This document shows, piece after piece, positions 3,227-64,000 of a stretch of DNA of 64,000 bases. Source of the stretch: Myxococcales bacterium (GTDB taxonomy: Bacteria > Myxococcota > Myxococcia > Myxococcales > UBA5297); NCBI GenBank assembly GCA_049841135.1, contig JASGHK010000008.1:83272-147271 (forward strand). Direction: 5' to 3'. Made by a program: the position numbers and the translations under genes. Numbering within the stretch: the first letter of the stretch is position 1; every line of letters begins with the position of its first letter. The notes beneath the pieces are model-generated. The model made no database searches, had not been told where the DNA came from, and worked only from the letters and a program-made list of their open reading frames with translations.

Positions 3227-3616
3227 ATGCGCGCTCGCCATCGCCAGGCCCGGAACCAGCAGGGCGCCTCCGCCGTCGAGTTCGCGCTGGTCCTTCCGCT
3301 GCTTCTGCTCCTCGTGATGGGCACGATCGACTGGGGCTACTACTTCTTCACCGAGCAGATCGTCGTCAACGCGTCCCGCGAAGGCGCCCGGGCCGGCTCG
3401 CTGGCCACGCTGGGAGACGCGTCCTCCCAGGCCTCGGTGGCGGCGGCCCAGTACCTTACCCGCGCGGGCCTCGACTCGTCCCGCGCGACCATCCTGGCGA
3501 CTCCGAGGACGGACTCGATCGCCGTCAGCATCACCTACCCCACCGGGTCGCTCACCGGCTTGAGCACCTCGTGGGTCCCCGCGGCTGCGCGCGCCGACGC
3601 CGAGATGCGTCGCTGA
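3227..3616 (+). CDS. tadE: TadE/TadG-like pilus assembly protein (pseudopilin-like)
   Basis: N-terminal GASAVEFALVLPLLLLLVMGTIDWGYYF is the TadE-like (PF07811) signature. Start 2 nt after the cpaA stop. Confidence 0.75.
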   Translation: MRARHRQARNQQGASAVEFALVLPLLLLLVMGTIDWGYYFFTEQIVVNASREGARAGSLATLGDASSQASVAAAQYLTRAGLDSSRATILATPRTDSIAVSITYPTGSLTGLSTSWVPAAARADAEMRR

Positions 3617-7325: not shown

Positions 7326-8667
7326 ATGGGGTTGATCGACCGAGCGCGGGGCCGCGCCCCGGAAGCCGCCGCGGCAGCCGAGGGACTGGCCGCGAACCAG
7401 CAGCAGTTCCACGACCTGAAGGCCGACCTCCATCGGCGGCTGGTGGATCGCATCGACCTGCGCACCCTCGAGAGCCTCCCGCCGGACCGCGTCCGCGAGG
7501 AGCTGCGAAGCGTGTTGGGCGCCATGGTCCAGGAGAAGCTCGTTGCCACTCAGCCGCGCCGAGCGCGAGCGGATGGTCCAGGAGCTCATCGACGAGCTCA
7601 TCGGCCTGGGGCCTCTCGAGCCGCTGCTGCGCGACCCGACCATCAGCGACCTGCTCGTCAACACCTACGCCACCACCTACGTCGAGCGCCGCGGCAAGCT
7701 CGAGCTGACCCCGGTGCGCTTCCGCGACAACGACCACCTGCTGCAGATCATCAACCGCATCGTCTCGCGGGTGGGACGCCGGGTCGACGAGGCCTCGCCG
7801 ATGGTCGACGCCCGGCTCGCCGACGGCTCGCGCGTCAACGCCATCATCCCCCCGCTCGCCATCGACGGCCCCTGCCTGTCCATCCGCCGCTTCGGCTCCG
7901 CGCCCCTGCGGCTGCTCGAGCTGGTCGAAGGCGGCAGCGCGCCGCGCGAGGCCCTGGCCTTCCTGGGCGCCGCGGTGCGCGCCAAGCTCAACGTCCTCAT
8001 CAGCGGCGGCACCGGCAGCGGCAAGACCACGCTGCTCAACGCCCTCTCGGCGTTCATCCCCGACGGCGAGCGGGTGGTGACCATCGAGGACTCGGCCGAG
8101 CTCAAGCTGCAGCAGAAGCACGTCGTGCGCCTGGAGACCCGCCCGCCCAACATCGAAGGCGTCGGGGAGATCGTCGCCCGCGACCTCGTCCGCAACAGCC
8201 TGCGCATGCGCCCCGACCGGATCATCATCGGCGAGGTCCGCGGCGCCGAGGTGCTGGACATGCTGCAGGCCATGAACACCGGGCACGAGGGCTCGATGAC
8301 CACCGTGCACGCCAACACCCCGCGCGACGCGCTGGCCCGCATGGAGGCGATGGTGGGGATGAGCGGGGTCCCCATGGCCGACGGCGCGGTGCGCCAGACC
8401 ATCGCCCGCGCGCTCAACGTGATGGTGCAGCTCAACCGCTACACCGACGGCAAGCGGCGGCTCTCGAGCATCGCGGAGATCACCGGCACCGAGGGTCCCA
8501 CCATCACCTTGCAGGAGATCATCCGCTTCGAGCAGCAGGGGGTCGACGCCCAGGGCCGCGTCGTCGGGCGCTTCGTGGCCACGGGGGTGCGGCCGCGCTG
8601 CACCGAGCGGATCGAGCGGGCGGGCATCGACGCCGACGAGCTCTTCGCGCGCATCGCGGGGGCCTAG
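7326..8667 (+). CDS. cpaF: CpaF/TadA secretion ATPase, apparent +1 frameshift near 7545-7556
   Basis: N-terminal frame: [47 protein letters not shown]. Downstream frame: [18 protein letters not shown]...[16 protein letters not shown] (Walker A)...[33 protein letters not shown]. This is the VirB11/GspE-like ATPase of Tad systems. Confidence 0.85.
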
Positions 8668-10592: not shown

Positions 10593-11390
10593 ATGCGCGC
10601 TTCGTTCCCGGCCGTGCTGGCCTTCGTCGCACTGCTGCTGGCCCAAGGCTGCGCGCACACCCGGCCGCCGGCCGACGAGACCTCCGCGCTGCGCAAGGCG
10701 ATGGCCCGCCACGCGGTGCGGCAGGGCCAGTGGGCCGCCGCGATGGACCTCCTCTCGGAGCTCTACCGCGCCTCGCCCAGGGACGCCGAGGTGCTGGCCC
10801 TGCGCGGAGTGGCGCTGCGCGAGCAAGGGCTCCTGCACGAGGCCGAGACGGAGTTGCTCGAGGCGGTGCGGCTGGCGCCGGACTACGCCTGGGGGCAGGC
10901 GCAGCTCGCGGTCCTGCTCGATCTGCTCGAGAAGCCCGACCAAGCGCTGGTCCACCACCGGAGGGCGGTGGCGCTGGAGCCGGAGAACCCGGGCTGGCTC
11001 AACAACCTCGCCTTCTCGCAGTTCGCGCGCGGGCAGACCGCCGAGGCCATCGAGGGCTACCGGCACGCGGTGCGGCTGGCGCCCAACGACGCGCGCATCC
11101 GCAACAACCTGGGCTTTGCCCTCGCCCGCTCGGGCGACTTCCGGGCCGCGGCCGAGCAGTTCCGGCACGCCGGCGGCGCCGCCGACGCGCGCATCAACCT
11201 CGGCCTGGCCTACGAGATCGCCGGGAACCTGGCGCAGGCCTTCGACCTGTACCTGGAGGCGGCCCGGCTCGACCCGGGCTCGACGAAGGCGCGCTCGAAC
11301 CTGGAGCACGTGGCGCAGCGGCTGGGGCGGGCGGTGCCGCAGACGGCAGCCCTCGAGACGACTGGAGCGGAGGGGAGGCAAGGGCCATGA
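10593..11390 (+). CDS. TPR-repeat lipoprotein (TadD-like)
   Basis: Lipoprotein signal (LLLAQGCAH) and several TPR units (AWGQAQLAVLL..., NPGWLNNLAFSQFARG..., ARIRNNLGFALARSG...). Start overlaps the tadC stop. Confidence 0.7.
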   Translation: MRASFPAVLAFVALLLAQGCAHTRPPADETSALRKAMARHAVRQGQWAAAMDLLSELYRASPRDAEVLALRGVALREQGLLHEAETELLEAVRLAPDYAWGQAQLAVLLDLLEKPDQALVHHRRAVALEPENPGWLNNLAFSQFARGQTAEAIEGYRHAVRLAPNDARIRNNLGFALARSGDFRAAAEQFRHAGGAADARINLGLAYEIAGNLAQAFDLYLEAARLDPGSTKARSNLEHVAQRLGRAVPQTAALETTGAEGRQGP

Positions 11391-11725
11391 GGTTGGGCAT
11401 CAAGGGGTGGGTGGGGCTGGGCGCGCTGGCGGCGTCGCTGGGCGGCTGCGCGGGCCCGGAGCACCTGGGGTCCGGGACCACCGGGGCCGCGACGCGCGCC
11501 GTCGCCACCCTGCAGGCCGTGCGGCCGCCGTCGAAGGTGGCCGCGAAGGCGGCGACCGGCTTGGATTCGCAGGAGGCGGCGATCATCTCGGAGGCGTACC
11601 GTCGCTCGCTGGCGCCCAAGGGCGCCGCGGTCGACGAGCCGTCGGTGCTCTTCGTCGCGCCGAACAGCGCCAAGGCGCAGGGCCGCGCGCTGCCTCCGCC
11701 GTCCGTGCCGCCCAAGGAGAGGTGA
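11387..11725 (+). CDS. small lipoprotein of unknown function (tad locus)
   Basis: ATGA overlap with the upstream stop. Product MRLGIKGWVGLGALAASLGGCAGPE... has a lipobox LGGC. 112 aa. Confidence 0.5.
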   Translation: MRLGIKGWVGLGALAASLGGCAGPEHLGSGTTGAATRAVATLQAVRPPSKVAAKAATGLDSQEAAIISEAYRRSLAPKGAAVDEPSVLFVAPNSAKAQGRALPPPSVPPKER

Positions 11726-59098: not shown

Positions 59099-59745
59099 AT
59101 GCTGGCGACGGTGAAGTCGGGCGCGTTGATGGGCGTGGATGCGGTGGTGGTGGACGTCGAAGTGGACATGGCCTTCGGAATGCCGTTCTTCGCCATCGTC
59201 GGGCTTCCCGACAACTCGGTGAAGGAGAGCAAGGTCCGGGTCATCTCGGCCATCAAGAACTGCAGCTACGAGCTGCCGTCGAAGAAGGTCACGGTCAACC
59301 TGGCCCCGGCGGACATCCGCAAGGACGGCACGGCGTTCGACCTGCCCATCGCGCTCGGTGTCCTCGCCGCAGCCCAGATCGTCGAGCCCGAGGCGCTGCA
59401 GTCGCACCTCTTCGCAGGGGAGCTGGCGCTCGACGGGAGCATCAAGCCCATCCGCGGCGCGCTCCCGTTGGCGGTCGCTGCGCGCGACGCCGGGCTCAAG
59501 GGCATCTACGTGCCCAAGGAGAACGCGCGCGAGGCGTCGGTCGTCGAGGGCATCGACGTCATCCCGGTGACCACCTTCCGTGAGCTCGTCGAAGCCATCG
59601 ACTCCGAGGAGCTGATCACGCCGTACCCGCGCGAGCTCGCCACCAACGCCAGCCACGCCAGCGACTCGGTCGACTTCACCGACGTCCGCGGCCAGGAGGG
59701 CGCCAAGCGCGCGATGGTGCTCGCGGCTGCAGGGGGCCACAACGC
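59099..59745 (+). pseudogene. comM: comM/yifB (Mg-chelatase-like ATPase) 5' fragment, truncated at about 59743 by an inserted element
   Basis: MLATVKSGALMGVDAVVVDVEVD...VGLPDNSVKESKVRVISAIKNCSYELPSKKVTVNLAPADIRKDGTAFDLPIALGVLAA...FTDVRGQEGAKRAMVLAAAGGHN aligns with YifB/ComM up to just before the Walker A. Reading then continues as AFLLGPFALPRLPARR... (not ComM) in lower-GC DNA. Confidence 0.8.
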
Positions 59746-61259
59746 TTTTCTACTTGGCCCATTTGCCCTGCCAAGGTTGCCGGCTCGACGGGCAATCGGC
59801 CGGCGAGGTCGATCCGGTCCCGGTACAGCCGCAGTCCGTAGGGAGCGCGCAAGGGCACCATGATGCCCAGCAACTCCTGCATCCGTTCCGGGGAGGCGCG
59901 ACGGATGGCCCGAGCTAGCGTGCTGGCAGCAGTGCCGAGAGCTGCCCCACCGCACTGAACAGGGGCGTCCGCAAGAGCGACCTTCGCGCGCAGCCGCCTA
60001 GAGTCTGCCGCGGTGCGTGTGTTCTTGATCTGGCCCAGGCGCTCCCGTGCCACCGCCTCCGACACCAGCCCTTCGTCCAGAAGCCGCACAAGCCGAGCCT
60101 CCTGGCTATCCAGGCGCTCCAACTCGGCTTCGGCTTCGGCCAGGTCAAGGTTCGGCTTCTCCTGCTCTGTTCGCTTGCGGCCCGCTTGAACCGCCGCGCC
60201 CAGGACATCGGGATGGGTCAGGAGGTCAACGAGAGCGGCCCGCATCGCAGCGTCGGCGTCAGGAACCCGAACGGTTCGCCGGTCGGGGCAAGGCGGTGCT
60301 GTCAGCCGCCGCGCCGGGGTGGGACAGCCGTAGCGGTAGGACGCACCCTTGCCATCCGACAGAACGTGAACCCGGCAGCCGCATGCGCCGCAGGTCAGCA
60401 GTCCACGCATCGCCGCGTCCCGGGATGGCTTGGGCCCGCAAGACGACTTGGCGTCTGCCAAGAGCATCTTGAGTCGCTCCCAAGTTACTTCGTCCACGAT
60501 CGGCGGAATCTCGACGGTATGCCCACAGACCGTGTAGCGCCCGATGATGGCGGGCTGAGTCAGCAACCGGAGAACAGTGCTCTTCCCCCACTTCCCGGCT
60601 CGGGCGGCGGGCACGCCATCGCGGTTAAGGTGAGCCGCTATCGTGCGCGACGACTCCCCAGACAACGCCTCTGCGACGATGCGTCGGTAGACGTCGACCT
60701 GCTCGGGCACGACGATCCAGGTCTTGGAGAAGTGGTCATAGCGGCGCCCGTAAGGAGGCGAGCCCTGCGAGAGGCGCCCCTCCTCGGCTGCCCGCAAGCG
60801 CCCCGCGGCCGTCCTCAGCAGAATCTTCCGCCGCTCCTCTGAACTCTCGTTCGCCTTGAGGAGATAGGTCAGCCGGCCCAGGACGTTGCTTGGTTCAAAG
60901 ACTGCGCCCTGCGCGTCAACAATGACGGCGCGAGCCTCCTCGGCCAAGCAGAGGACTTCGGTCTGCTCTCGAAGGGTCGCGGCGCGCGTGATCCGGTCGA
61001 TAGCGAAGCAGCGGATCTCGTCGTAGGACTTCGAAGCCGTGAGGCGTCGCAGTTCGCGCACGCTGTCGCGCTCATCCAGAGGCAGGGCCCCCGACACACC
61101 CAGTTCCTCGATGCGTGCCACAACCACGCACGGGCGGGACCTTCGCAGGCGGTCCAAAGCATGGCGTTGCGTCTCGGGCGTGTCGTTTTTGACCTGCTGG
61201 TCACTGGAGACGCGAATCAACTCTACTGCGCGCGGGAGAGCGGGGTCGGTGCCGGGCAT
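59676..61259 (-). CDS. large serine recombinase (resolvase-type catalytic domain, recombinase domain and zinc-ribbon)
   Basis: ATG 61259 with GGAGG RBS. AVELIRVSSDQQVKNDTPETQRHAL (catalytic Ser in RVSS). Recombinase domain (IAAHLNRDGVPAARAGKWGKSTVLRLL). Cys cluster (CGACGCRVHV...YRYGCP). Coiled-coil C-terminus. The C-terminal codons read through the comM junction. Confidence 0.85.
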   Translation of the reverse strand: MPGTDPALPRAVELIRVSSDQQVKNDTPETQRHALDRLRRSRPCVVVARIEELGVSGALPLDERDSVRELRRLTASKSYDEIRCFAIDRITRAATLREQTEVLCLAEEARAVIVDAQGAVFEPSNVLGRLTYLLKANESSEERRKILLRTAAGRLRAAEEGRLSQGSPPYGRRYDHFSKTWIVVPEQVDVYRRIVAEALSGESSRTIAAHLNRDGVPAARAGKWGKSTVLRLLTQPAIIGRYTVCGHTVEIPPIVDEVTWERLKMLLADAKSSCGPKPSRDAAMRGLLTCGACGCRVHVLSDGKGASYRYGCPTPARRLTAPPCPDRRTVRVPDADAAMRAALVDLLTHPDVLGAAVQAGRKRTEQEKPNLDLAEAEAELERLDSQEARLVRLLDEGLVSEAVARERLGQIKNTRTAADSRRLRAKVALADAPVQCGGAALGTAASTLARAIRRASPERMQELLGIMVPLRAPYGLRLYRDRIDLAGRLPVEPATLAGQMGQVEKRCGPLQPRAPSRAWRPPGRGRR

Positions 61260-61399
61260 CTGTTTGCCTCCTGGGCTTCTGCAAGCCGCAGATCCGTTAG
61301 CACAGCTTCGAACCAGTCGAGCAAGTCGGAGACGGCAAGCGCCTGCTCGGACTCGTCGGCAAGACACGAGAGGCGGACACTCGCGGGGCTCCTACTCAT
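61223..61399 (-). CDS. small hypothetical protein (58 aa) overlapping the recombinase start
   Basis: MSRSPASVRLSCLADESEQALAVSDLLDWFEAVLTDLRLAEAQEA... No family recognised. Confidence 0.3.
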   Translation of the reverse strand: MSRSPASVRLSCLADESEQALAVSDLLDWFEAVLTDLRLAEAQEANRCPAPTPLSRAQ

Positions 61400-61677
61400 C
61401 GCCGCCCCCCCCTCCCGCCGCTTGCTGGCTTCTGGGCCAGACTTGCCGCCTGTCGAGTCGAGACAACGAGTCGATAGCCGCCGGGTGCCCCACAGTCCGC
61501 GAAGCGGTGGCCGATGTCTCGCAGTCCATCGGTGTCCCGGTTCCGAAGCGGCTTCCCGGCCTCGGAGAACGGCCAACCGTGGACGTGCGTTCCGGCGCAC
61601 CACGGGCAGAGCGCCTCAACGTGCCGCGTGGTGGTGACGCTGTAGACCCGGCCGAAGGCGTAGGGGATGGGGCTCAT
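61396..61677 (-). CDS. small hypothetical Cys/His-containing protein (about 93 aa)
   Basis: MSPIPYAFGRVYSVTTTRHVEALCPWCAGTHVHGWPF...HRFADCGAPGGYRLV. Possible zinc-binding. Confidence 0.35.
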   Translation of the reverse strand: MSPIPYAFGRVYSVTTTRHVEALCPWCAGTHVHGWPFSEAGKPLRNRDTDGLRDIGHRFADCGAPGGYRLVVSTRQAASLAQKPASGGRGGRR

Positions 61678-61997
61678 TGCTCGCACCTCCCGGCCGAGTT
61701 GGGCCAGTCGCACTCGTGGTCGCGCAGGGCGCAAACGGCGCACCCCCTGTGCAGCATGATCGTGCGATAGGCGTTCGGCGCCCGGGTCGGCCTGAACCAT
61801 CGCTCGCCCAACTTGCTGGCGAGAGTCCCCAGATCGATCGCGCACCGCTTCCAGTCGGCTGTCTCGAATCCCAGTTCACTCAGTGGGACGAACAAGTCTG
61901 TTCGCGCGTCGTAGAACCGTCCGGCATGCGGGCTGCCGTCCTCGGCAGCGTCTCCGTGGATGTAGAGTCGCTCCGGTCGAAGGGCGGTGGACTTCAT
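61674..61997 (-). CDS. hypothetical protein (107 aa)
   Basis: ATG 61997 with GGGAGG RBS. MKSTALRPERLYIHGDAAEDGSPHAGRFYDARTDLFVPLSELGFETADW... Confidence 0.4.
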   Translation of the reverse strand: MKSTALRPERLYIHGDAAEDGSPHAGRFYDARTDLFVPLSELGFETADWKRCAIDLGTLASKLGERWFRPTRAPNAYRTIMLHRGCAVCALRDHECDWPNSAGRCEQ

Positions 61998-62200
61998 CGG
62001 CGTTCGCCTCCCTTCCCGCTGCACAGCAACTCGAAGCCGGGGCGGAGTGCTTCCAGTTTCTCCGCCGCAGCGTCGAACCGCTGTGCTTCGACTAGATGGG
62101 CTACCTCGACCAACCGAGCAGACACGCTGCCGGCGCGGAGAGCGAGCCGCAGACCGACCGGCAAAGAAGCCGGGGCCGTCGGCGGACTTCGTTGGATACC

Positions 62201-62389
62201 TCATCGCAGCCCCCGCTCGGCCTTGGATAGCGCCAGCAGTTCAGTCATCGCCGAAGCGAGCGCGCATGCCACGTCATCGGCAGTGCCAGTTAGTGCGAGG
62301 TCTGCCGCTGCGTGAATCTTCTTCGCCAACTTCTTGGCTGCTCGGGTGCGGTGGTCGGTTGCGGCGGGGGTAACGGTCTTCGACGTCAT
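62201..62389 (-). CDS. small hypothetical protein (62 aa)
   Basis: ATG 62389 with GGAGATG RBS. MTSKTVTPAATDHRTRAAKKLAKKIHAAADLALTGTADDVACALASAMTELLALSK. Confidence 0.35.
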   Translation of the reverse strand: MTSKTVTPAATDHRTRAAKKLAKKIHAAADLALTGTADDVACALASAMTELLALSKAERGLR

Positions 62390-62448
62390 CGGAGCATCTC
62401 CTTGGTTGGTGCTTCGGGTGCTTCGGGTACGACTTCGGAAACGACAGG

Positions 62449-62733
62449 TCATGCGGCCTTCCTCTCTAAGCGCGCGTCGGTGCCGGTGAGGATGGCCAGC
62501 GCTTCGTCATCGGAGCCGACGACAGCCGCGCGAACAGCGTGGGCCCACAGTTCTTCGCCGGGCCCGAGCTGGGCGAGCGCCGCCAAGAGTTCCGAGGCGA
62601 AGGGCTCGAAGCGCGCCCGAAACGCGTCAGTCCGCGCCGCCTTGGGCCTTACAACGAGTCGCCCTGAGCCGCTCCAGAGGGTGATTCCCGAGGAGTGCGC
62701 AGCGGTTAGCAGGGACAGGAGGGCCGGGCTCAC
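62449..62733 (-). CDS. small hypothetical protein (about 94 aa)
   Basis: GTG 62733 overlapping the upstream stop (GTGA) with GAGGAGG RBS. VSPALLSLLTAAHSSGITLWSGSGRLVVRPKAARTDAFRARFEPFASELL... Confidence 0.35.
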   Translation of the reverse strand: MSPALLSLLTAAHSSGITLWSGSGRLVVRPKAARTDAFRARFEPFASELLAALAQLGPGEELWAHAVRAAVVGSDDEALAILTGTDARLERKAA

Positions 62734-64000
62734 GCGAAGGCCTCCTCTTCGTCGGCCCACAGGCCGGATTGAGGCGGAACAGCAGCAGACGGAGGCTCGG
62801 GAGGAGGGCTGGAGACCGCGGGAGACCGGGAGTCCGCGGGAGTCGTGCCGGCCGTTTCTTCGTGGGAGGTGTTTTTTTCATCTTCTTCAGAAAAACTACT
62901 TTCCCCAGGAACCCGGTTAGAACGTCTCCCGCTGTCTCCCGCACTCCCGCAAGACCCTGAAACCGCCCAACTCCAAGAGCCGTTGCGGCTGTCTTTCTCA
63001 ACCGCGCAGATTCGTTCGCCTTTTCTCCACTTGTCCCGATAGAGGCCGATTCGGCGCCCCAACTTGCGGGCATCCACCTTGCCATCCTTGATGAAGTCGG
63101 CCGCGTCGAGCGCTGCCCAGAAGTCGGCGGCCGCCGGATTGTCTCCCGCGAACTCGGACGCGCGCCCCGCCTCGAGCCGTTGCTTGATCTGACCGGCGGT
63201 CAGCCCCGACCGCCCGGGGTCGAGCGCCTTTAGCCCAGCGATCAACATGTCGTGAAGGTCGGTGGTCCTGTCGGCCTTCCGTAGTCCCTCGCGCGTGTCC
63301 ACCCACGGATTGGCCAACCCGAGCCATCGGCACATCCCGCGAACGATGGCGCTCCACTCCTCAAAGCTCCCGAAGGCGGGAAGGTCCCTGGAGTTGGGGC
63401 GTCCCGCGACGAACCAGGCGCGGGCCACTGTGAGAGCGCAGGCGAGCAAGCGCGGCCGGTTCTCGCGGACCCAGCCGAGCAGGTCTCTGTGCGCAACGTC
63501 AGTGCGTTCCTCGGGGTGCTCCAGGGGCGACGCGAGCCGGATATGGATCGCGCGCCGCACAATGTCGCCGCATAGCGTGGCGTTGTTGAGGGTCGCCCAC
63601 CACGTTGCGCAGTTGGGCAACTTGAGCGCGGCCTCAGCGTCGTTGCGGCCCAGCAAGCGGCTGGCATAGGTGCCCTCGCACGTCAGCAACTTGTCGAGGA
63701 TGGCGCCGCCGAAGTCGGTATCAACGTTGTCGAGGTTGACCACTGCATCCATGGCCGACAGGTGCGCGACGATGCGCTTGTCCATCTCCTCTCGGTTGAG
63801 GGTGAAGGACTCGCAGGGGGCCATGTAGCCCGTGGCGATTCGCGCTGCCGTGTGAACGAGGAGCCCCTTGCCTGCGCCGCGCGTGTTCGCATCCACCATG
63901 TTCAGCGGCACGTTTGCGGAGCCGAGAGCCGGGCTTGACGATCATGGTCATCAGCGCCGCGAACCAAGCCGCTCGATGCGCTTCGGTCTCAAAGGGGAAG
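62730..64000 (-). CDS. phage/plasmid primase-helicase-like protein, C-terminal part (N-terminus beyond window; apparent +1 frameshift near 63905-63930)
   Basis: VNLDNVDTDFGGAILDKLLTCEGTYASRLLGRNDAEAALKLPNCATWWATLNNATLCGDIVRRAIHIRLAS... resembles the C-terminal region of P4/D5-type primase-helicases (from memory). Upstream frame at window end: FPFETEAHRAAWFAALMTMIVKPGS. Confidence 0.35.

Follow-up and report, generated by a model that had tools for sequence, protein, structure and literature searches.

At the end of the 64,000-nucleotide stretch analysed here (contig JASGHK010000008.1 of Myxococcales bacterium assembly GCA_049841135.1, positions 83,272 to 147,271; hereafter the window), the competence gene comM is broken off by an element that carries a gene for a large serine recombinase (LSR) at its edge. 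The element is visible for 4.25 kb from its left attachment site (attL) up to the window end at 64000. In the closest non-integrated relatives of this recombinase, the phage attachment site (attP) lies inside the recombinase gene itself, and integration into comM would give the enzyme a different C-terminus. The features at the junction are the following:

59099..59746, plus strand: 5' part of comM (yifB), ending ...AAAGGHNA, with the ChlI/Lon-like N-terminal domain and the start of the AAA+ domain
59722..59773, no strand: putative attL, its left arm comM and its right arm an element half-site imitating the comM codons LMLGP
59676..61259, minus strand: large serine recombinase of 527 aa, assigned from Pfam, PHROG 95, the family alignment A1 and an AlphaFold2 (AF2) model

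The interrupted gene is a genuine 5' part of ComM/YifB, disrupted one turn short of Walker A. The encoded fragment matches NCBI protein P0001 (MAG: Myxococcales bacterium) at 100% identity, covers the Pfam domain ChlI (PF13541) end to end (profile positions 1-121 of 121, 2.2e-45) and enters Mg_chelatase (PF01078) for profile positions 1-30 of 207 only. It departs from its relatives at GGHNA, ahead of the Walker A motif GPPGSGKT, where the text VDFTDVRGQEGAKRAMVLAAAGGHNA is followed by AFLLGPFALPRL while relatives have ALMLGPPGSGKT, and both the AAA+ motor and Mg_chelatase_C are missing. The open frame continues across the junction (59072/59099..59863, plus strand), its last 39 codons being meaningless element DNA. 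These results bear out the initial annotation, in which comM was read as correct up to just before Walker A and as nonsense thereafter. That annotation also raised the case of an intact comM elsewhere, with the present copy a duplicated fragment; a tblastn search with a full-length ComM query found neither a second comM nor a comM 3' half within the 64-kb window. ComM function is presumably lost while the element is present, and a ComM stump devoid of the AAA+ motor would deprive the host of its transformation helicase unless the element is precisely excised.

The recombinase gene is read from the opposite strand and ends across this junction. Its product contains the Pfam domains Resolvase (PF00239, 1.2e-12), Recombinase (PF07508, 1.7e-14) and Zn_ribbon_recom (PF13408, 5.1e-6), and matches PHROG 95 'integrase' at 2.6e-60. 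In a family alignment of 17 LSR sequences (A1), the residues R16-V17-S18, which include the catalytic serine, Q22, D80, E81, R83, D88, R89 and R92 are invariant, as are C290, C293 and C312 of the zinc ribbon, with C324 nearly so, and the AF2 model of the window enzyme has the long helices of a coiled coil (350-395 and 401-430). Judged from its sequence, the enzyme is a large serine recombinase and not a tyrosine recombinase. It is full-length and keeps every family-invariant residue, catalytic residues included, which answers in part the earlier concern that it might be a truncated relic lacking a cognate att repeat at the far end. The family is small, with 18 matches in a search of 5.8 billion proteins (best identity 55%), and only 26-29% identity is found between this clade and the actinophage integrases.

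Residues 1-504 of the recombinase are encoded by the element (59748-61259), and residues 505-527, KRCGPLQPRAPSRAWRPPGRGRR, come from antisense comM (59676-59747). The minus strand reads gta gaa aag cgt tgt ggc ccc ctg cag ccg. Within it, cgt tgt ggc ccc ctg cag c corresponds, as reverse complement, to the comM text g ctg cag ggg gcc aca acg, and the last 23 residues are therefore host-encoded. The 527-aa recombinase at 61259-59676 with a comM-antisense end, as first proposed from the reading frames, is thus confirmed by the Pfam domains and by these last 23 codons. Base composition changes at the same place: at about 59.7 kb, GC content at third codon positions (GC3) changes from 0.93-0.97 in comM to 0.72-0.88 across the recombinase and the DNA past it. 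The lower-GC patches of the initial annotation are weak in total GC, which drops only slightly past the junction (from about 0.69 to 0.65-0.67), but the fall in GC3 is clear.

In the comM sense, attL reads GGCC (59735-38)-ACAACGCT-TT (59747-48)-TCTACTTG-GCCCAT (59757-62). From the symmetry of the site, the crossover dinucleotide would be located at 59747-59748. This position would lie 4-5 bases to the right of the 59743 given in the initial annotation. That annotation had also taken the resemblance of the first codons after the junction (AFLLGP) to ComM as a hint of an att core overlap; the likeness is real, but this stretch is instead the half-site that the phage contributes to attL, which in LSR systems resembles its attB counterpart around a 2-bp crossover. 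The idea of an extended common att core was considered and rejected, as the similarity past the centre is imperfect and of the half-site type. No tRNA target was found in 55-64 kb of the window, and promoter and terminator scans performed no better than shuffles.

Relatives of the recombinase were found both joined to comM and in free phages:

L002/L011 (GCA_037442205.1): LSR 55% identical to that of the window, joined to comM at the GGHNA codon
L010/L012 (GCA_016218885.1): LSR 54% identical to that of the window, joined to comM at the GGHNA codon
L004/L005/L018 (protein P0124; one phage in ENA, Logan and JGI data): LSR flanked on both sides by phage-type genes, no comM
L003 (protein P0125): LSR flanked on both sides by phage-type genes, no comM

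Three LSRs, that of the window included, lie antisense to a truncated comM at the identical GGHNA codon and in the same orientation, the comM parts of the three insertions being 70-80% identical. The occupation of this codon in L002 and L010, together with the shift in codon usage at the junction, sustains the initial proposal of an island in comM bounded by an LSR. The three lysogen enzymes are conserved up to ..RC and then continue in comM-antisense residues (RCGPLQP... in the window, RCDHRRRR in L002, RCGRPRRR in L010), with tails of 23, 9 and 9 residues, respectively. Five sites share one register, [ACT]TGG[GC]C-N8-centre-N8-G[GA]CC, namely the attL of the window, L002 and L010 and the attP of L004/L018 and L003. 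The centre coincides with bases one and two of the codon that follows Ala in GGHNA(L/M) and reads, in the comM sense, TT in the window and L004, CT in L003, and AT in L002 and L010.

The neighbourhood of the L002 recombinase contains phage recombination genes (DUF5131, AAA_23, PDDEXK), and the 10-kb flanks of L002 and L011 remain within the prophage, the right attachment site (attR) not being reached in L002. A search with a lysis-region protein (A4) that L003 and L004 conserve across attP from the recombinase returned only non-integrated phage contigs without comM, and scanning metagenomes and viral sequences with the family alignment yielded extra free forms and distant relatives, with no further comM lysogen. 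Comparison of the related phages by tblastx was too noisy at such GC beyond the strongest blocks. In L010 (about 1900-1930) the entire attL is a perfect palindrome, GGCCACAACGCC-AT-GGCGTTGTGGCC, and the L002 site is found at 10640-10665; the orientation of insertion would not be fixed by a palindromic centre.

The free phages show what the recombinase gene looks like before integration. In their contigs, tail proteins and a peptidase are encoded just past the recombinase. Within the LSR open reading frame (ORF) of L004 there is a near-perfect inverted repeat, ATTGGGCCGAGCATC-AA-GATGCGGTGCCCAAT, and the corresponding attP in the ORF sense is caATTGGGCCGAGCATC-AA-GATGCGGTGCCCAATctg; in L003 the ORF-sense attP is CCTGGCC-ACACCGAC-AG-CGCGATCG-GGCCAGG, with N8 spacers. 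By their layout, these inverted repeats have the anatomy of a serine-integrase attP. The repeat falls exactly at the point where free and lysogen forms diverge, and the free-form ORFs run 16-18 codons past this point, the distance from the attP centre to the LSR stop being 18 codons in L004/L018 and 16 in L003. The tail of the free form is common to the family (..S(A)R(S/C)GQxAGVPLRFxV..) and is recognisable in A1 even in members that are about 35% identical. In the comM sense, one arm of the L004 attP is TTGATGCTCGGCCC, with the codons LMLGP. In contig L001, whose comM is 80% identical, the uninterrupted site is GGGGGCCACAACGCCCTCATGCTCGGCCCT, and the L004 arm differs from it only in the two bases flanking the T of the Leu codon (TTG versus CTC). 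The comparison of these sequences shows that the putative attP lies inside the LSR ORF of the non-integrated relatives, with a conserved tail that is lost in the lysogens. The initial description of a recombinase whose last codons run into comM was accordingly right in sequence but incomplete, since with attP inside the ORF the native terminus is lost.

Given that attP lies inside the LSR ORF, integration is predicted to replace a family-conserved C-terminal beta-strand by comM-antisense residues. The native terminal codons would move to attR, and the prophage LSR would end in antisense comM up to the first stop. In the AF2 model of the free form P0124 (16-sequence alignment; mean predicted local distance difference test score, pLDDT, of 82.6), a small extra C-terminal domain is formed by helices 432-447 and 451-461 and strands 469-473 and 476-484, followed by a low-confidence linker (485-498) that coincides with the attP arm and centre and by a final strand at 506-514 (pLDDT 68-87). 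The model of the window LSR (mean pLDDT 81.1) keeps this domain to the second strand, and residues 491-527 are strandless with pLDDT below 50. Foldseek relates the P0124 model to solved LSR structures at E values of 1e-16 to 1e-6 (9y66, 9dxh, Bxb1 9iu2, PhiC31 9tep/9rah and 4kis), among which are SPbeta-type and A118-type integrases as well as Bxb1 and PhiC31.

The same overlap of recombinase gene and attachment site recurs with other targets. An LSR of 32% identity in L017/L025 is joined to a truncated recA (first ~130 residues), with its 3' end overlapping the junction (L017, 66-1709 on the plus strand and 1621-2000 on the minus strand), and the recA stump adjoins an intact comM of 549 aa. 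The LSR clade, on this evidence from the reading frames, also targets recA, another recombination/competence gene. In a second subfamily, the free form of L006, a viral contig (about 11440-11524), ends in ..TSASPQIPIALVVG, and its integrated relatives in L013 (Anaeromyxobacter terrae SG22, about 11440-11500) and L021 (a soil contig, about 3290-3420) end in ..TSASPCP.., the junction being antisense of a host gene that ends ..GCLMGMDWHS (FWFQSLGCLMGMDWHS). Since the overlap recurs with a minimum of three targets (comM, recA and one other gene), it is a property of the clade and no accident of the present locus.

Many comM N-terminal fragments on long contigs stop within a few codons of Walker A. 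In L001 (979-1078), the comM of the closest relative (80% identical) is cut 8 codons further on, at GPPGSGK, by an element with ParA-like and RelA_SpoT genes and no adjoining LSR. A second, degenerate comM fragment (FADVRGQESAKRAVVIVAAGSHN..) lies about 7.3 kb inside this element (8261-8413), and the sequences after the two junctions are alike (..PKVVLTACATSPASP versus ..AKVVLTTCAPSASRP), which suggests that related elements inserted in tandem or one after another. In L045 (3702-9500) a comM truncated at the same spot abuts genes for BstA_C, an abortive-infection family, a DprA-like protein and helix-turn-helix (HTH) proteins, and in L044 (6747-11000) a truncated comM is followed by 2.6 kb without called genes and then by an IS21 IstB gene. 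Neither the L044 nor the L045 junction has a called recombinase beside it.

The remainder of the visible element is less easily interpreted and comprises the following:

61223-61402, minus strand: small acidic ORF of 59 aa, sharing 37 nt with the start of the recombinase gene, with counterparts upstream of related LSRs
61396..62760, minus strand: small ORFs of 149, 176, 83 and 103 aa (maximal ORFs), of no recognisable family and with uncertain gene boundaries
62730..64000, minus strand: 3' third of a phage-type primase/helicase, with its P-loop ATPase part at 62730-63911 and an upstream part in another frame from 64000

The initial annotation counted five small overlapping ORFs here. One of them, the small acidic ORF, is conserved: tblastn matches it at the same position in L002, L003, L004 and L005, with 48% identity to L002 and 35% to L004 (alignment A5). 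The counterparts in L002 (12113-12277) and L004 (1560-1736), like the ORF of the window about 55-59 aa long, overlap the recombinase start codon and share the consensus SVRLRCAADExEQAxAASELLxWxEAVLxDLRQAE...CP; that of L003 is longer (102 aa as called) and weakly aligned at 25% identity. The ORF containing the acidic frame (61223-61603) has no Pfam or PHROG match. The small acidic ORF is a possible candidate for an accessory or directionality factor or another integrase partner. The other small ORFs (61396-62760) gave no Pfam or PHROG match at E values up to 0.01, and GC3 backs coding in only parts of their frames. The profile searches proposed at the outset for an excisionase, a repressor or anti-defence genes among the small ORFs thus came back empty; within the visible part of the element, Pfam and PHROGs recognised no excisionase, repressor, defence or toxin gene, and no recognisable directionality factor was found there. 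L010 alone has a 67-aa HTH_17 (excisionase/MerR-like) gene at 28-231, about 190 nt upstream of its recombinase, for which no counterpart was recognised in the window.

The primase/helicase-like gene of the initial annotation is upheld by PHROG matches. Its 393-aa ORF (62730-63911, minus strand) aligns to the C-terminal third of primase/helicase PHROGs with 865-1229 profile positions, including 29234 (1.2e-41, profile positions 556-863 of 887), 10537 and 19930 'DNA polymerase/primase', and the ORF must therefore be the last part of a far longer gene. By tblastn it matches a P-loop protein in 59 phage records. The reading frame is, however, broken, and the break is either a real frameshift, through decay or programmed, or an assembly error.

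Taken together, we contend that the element is very probably a temperate phage or phage-derived integrative element that was integrated in comM by its own LSR. In the free phage, the LSR would end in the conserved beta-strand (..SGQxAGVPLRFxV..), with attP within its last ~18 codons. The enzyme would recognise a site of about 50 bp over the codons GGHNA-L/M-M-L-GP, directly upstream of the Walker A codons, and strand exchange would occur at the 2-bp centre with which the codon following Ala begins. The element may still be mobile and able to excise, as its LSR is intact, but its primase/helicase frame is broken.

Several observations weigh against this interpretation. The attL junction alone is in the window, whereas the comM 3' half and attR would lie beyond 64000, and the window contains no structural phage gene; past the LSR and the small acidic ORF, its genes show no homology to the related phages. 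The primase/helicase frame breaks at 63912-63944, where the ATPase frame is closed by a TGA (63942-63944) and another frame (FPFETEAHRAAWFAALMTMIVKPGS) enters from 64000. The AT centre of L002 and L010 is a palindrome, which is unusual for LSR sites, and the true crossover may therefore be one base away. The AF2 models were built on alignments of only 16-17 sequences. The same frame break, and the homology to related phages that stops at the LSR and the small acidic ORF, would also fit a phage satellite, an integrative mobilisable element or a decaying remnant unable to excise, in place of a complete prophage. P4-like and PICI-like satellites typically consist of an integrase, small ORFs and a large primase/helicase, a layout also seen here, and non-phage cargo occupies the same comM spot in L001 (ParA-like, RelA_SpoT) and L045 (BstA_C, DprA-like). 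Conversely, the LSR is full-length with all family-invariant residues, its closest relatives sit amid tail genes or phage recombination genes (L002), and misassembly may account for a lone frame break in a metagenome-assembled genome. A satellite or remnant is a minority possibility to be taken seriously. That no insertion took place at all, and that duplication or rearrangement left a pseudogene fragment of comM abutting a recombinase gene by chance, is highly improbable: it could draw on the single junction visible in the window, but the same codon, recombinase orientation and att register recur in three genomes with 70-80%-identical comM parts, the junction codon is the symmetry centre of attP in the non-integrated relatives, and the comM part retains host codon usage and an open frame.

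If the element was integrated by its own LSR, it can be speculated that the tail swap is a functional switch, with free and prophage recombinases that differ in how active or stable they are or in how they respond to a directionality factor. By analogy with IntP/IntX of the myxophage Mx8, such a switch would favour integration after infection and hold the prophage until induction. We put this forward tentatively and regard it as rather unlikely. Its appeal lies in a tail that is conserved as protein past the ~25 bp of the att half-site, across members only about 35% identical, in a strand that is predicted to be structured in the free form and absent from the integrated form, and in an ORF/att overlap that is maintained in sub-lineages with three different target genes. 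Mx8 provides a precedent in which, according to PMC6070905, int gains a new 3' end and altered properties upon integration. However, the overlap could merely reflect genome compaction, a neutral outcome that is the main alternative, and the host-encoded tails vary between lysogens in length (23, 9 and 9 residues) and in sequence. Given this variation, any effect would come from the loss of the native strand and not from the gain of a new tail. It also counts against a switch that the C-terminal extensions of serine integrases are variable in general. Antisense control could be added if the comM promoter drove convergent transcription into the 3' end of the recombinase gene. More doubtful still is the broader idea that the in-ORF attP serves as a built-in state sensor, through both the lost terminal strand and a 3' end placed under convergent host-gene transcription. 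If this were true, the prophage enzyme would differ from that of an incoming phage in directionality, stability or partner binding, and serine integrases would have a control layer that does not rely solely on a separate directionality factor.

The island in comM exemplifies a known, common phenomenon; its variant feature is the attP inside the LSR gene. To our knowledge, attP is intergenic in the best-known serine integrases. The Mg-chelatase/ATP-dependent-protease gene is the most frequent target of predicted site-specific LSRs, accounting for 12.4% of them (Durrant et al., 2022, PMC10083194), in line with the initial suggestion of comM as an integration hotspot, and the sr1WO prophages of Wolbachia integrate in a Mg chelatase gene (Bordenstein and Bordenstein, 2022, PMC9203015). 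These published systems resemble the window, at the level of the gene, in the LSR at the element edge and the split coding sequence, and the published LSR class also shares the choice of a highly conserved coding motif as target, with competence genes enriched among its targets. The clade of the window differs from the published comM LSRs in being small, remote and hosted by a myxobacterium, and neither PMC10083194 nor PMC9203015 mentions an att site inside the recombinase ORF. In the literature searched, no report of a serine-integrase attP inside the integrase gene was found, which is weak evidence of novelty.

The nearest parallel is Mx8, in which attP lies inside the integrase coding sequence and integration yields a new 3' end and altered properties (PMC6070905, citing Tojo et al., 1996 and Magrini et al., 1999). 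On that account, Mx8 IntP/IntX and the clade of the window share an attP in the integrase gene, a changed prophage C-terminus and a myxobacterial host, but Mx8 Int is a tyrosine recombinase that targets attB1/attB2, whereas the window has a serine recombinase targeting comM, with only ~18 residues exchanged. A functional effect of the remodelling is documented there for Mx8; in the clade of the window, the difference is one between a predicted terminal strand and a predicted disordered tail. PhiC31, Bxb1, SPbeta SprA and A118/LI agree with the window enzyme in domain order (catalytic domain, recombinase domain, zinc ribbon with coiled coil) and with the model of its relative P0124 in fold. Their att sites consist of imperfect inverted repeats with a 2-bp centre, an organisation that the putative sites of the present family probably share. 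Compared with PhiC31, Bxb1, SPbeta and A118, the family of the window has an extra small C-terminal domain of two helices and strands, the last strand of which is encoded past the attP centre. In Listeria, the prophage phi10403S resides in comK and acts as a regulatory switch in a competence gene, a state called 'active lysogeny'. The likeness lies in a prophage that interrupts a competence-pathway gene, and as a possibility only, precise excision could likewise restore comM.

The window thus adds a myxobacterial example to the commonest class of serine-integrase targets. Serine integrases are widely used genome-engineering tools, and this clade offers natural pairs of attP and the bacterial site attB, in which the central dinucleotide follows the host codon (TT, CT or AT). 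As attP lies inside the integrase gene throughout the clade, a lysogen always encodes an integrase without the conserved last strand. If the tail matters for activity, serine integrases would have in it a simple covalent means of controlling directionality or immunity, parallel to the long-known but little-explored case of Mx8 in myxobacteria.

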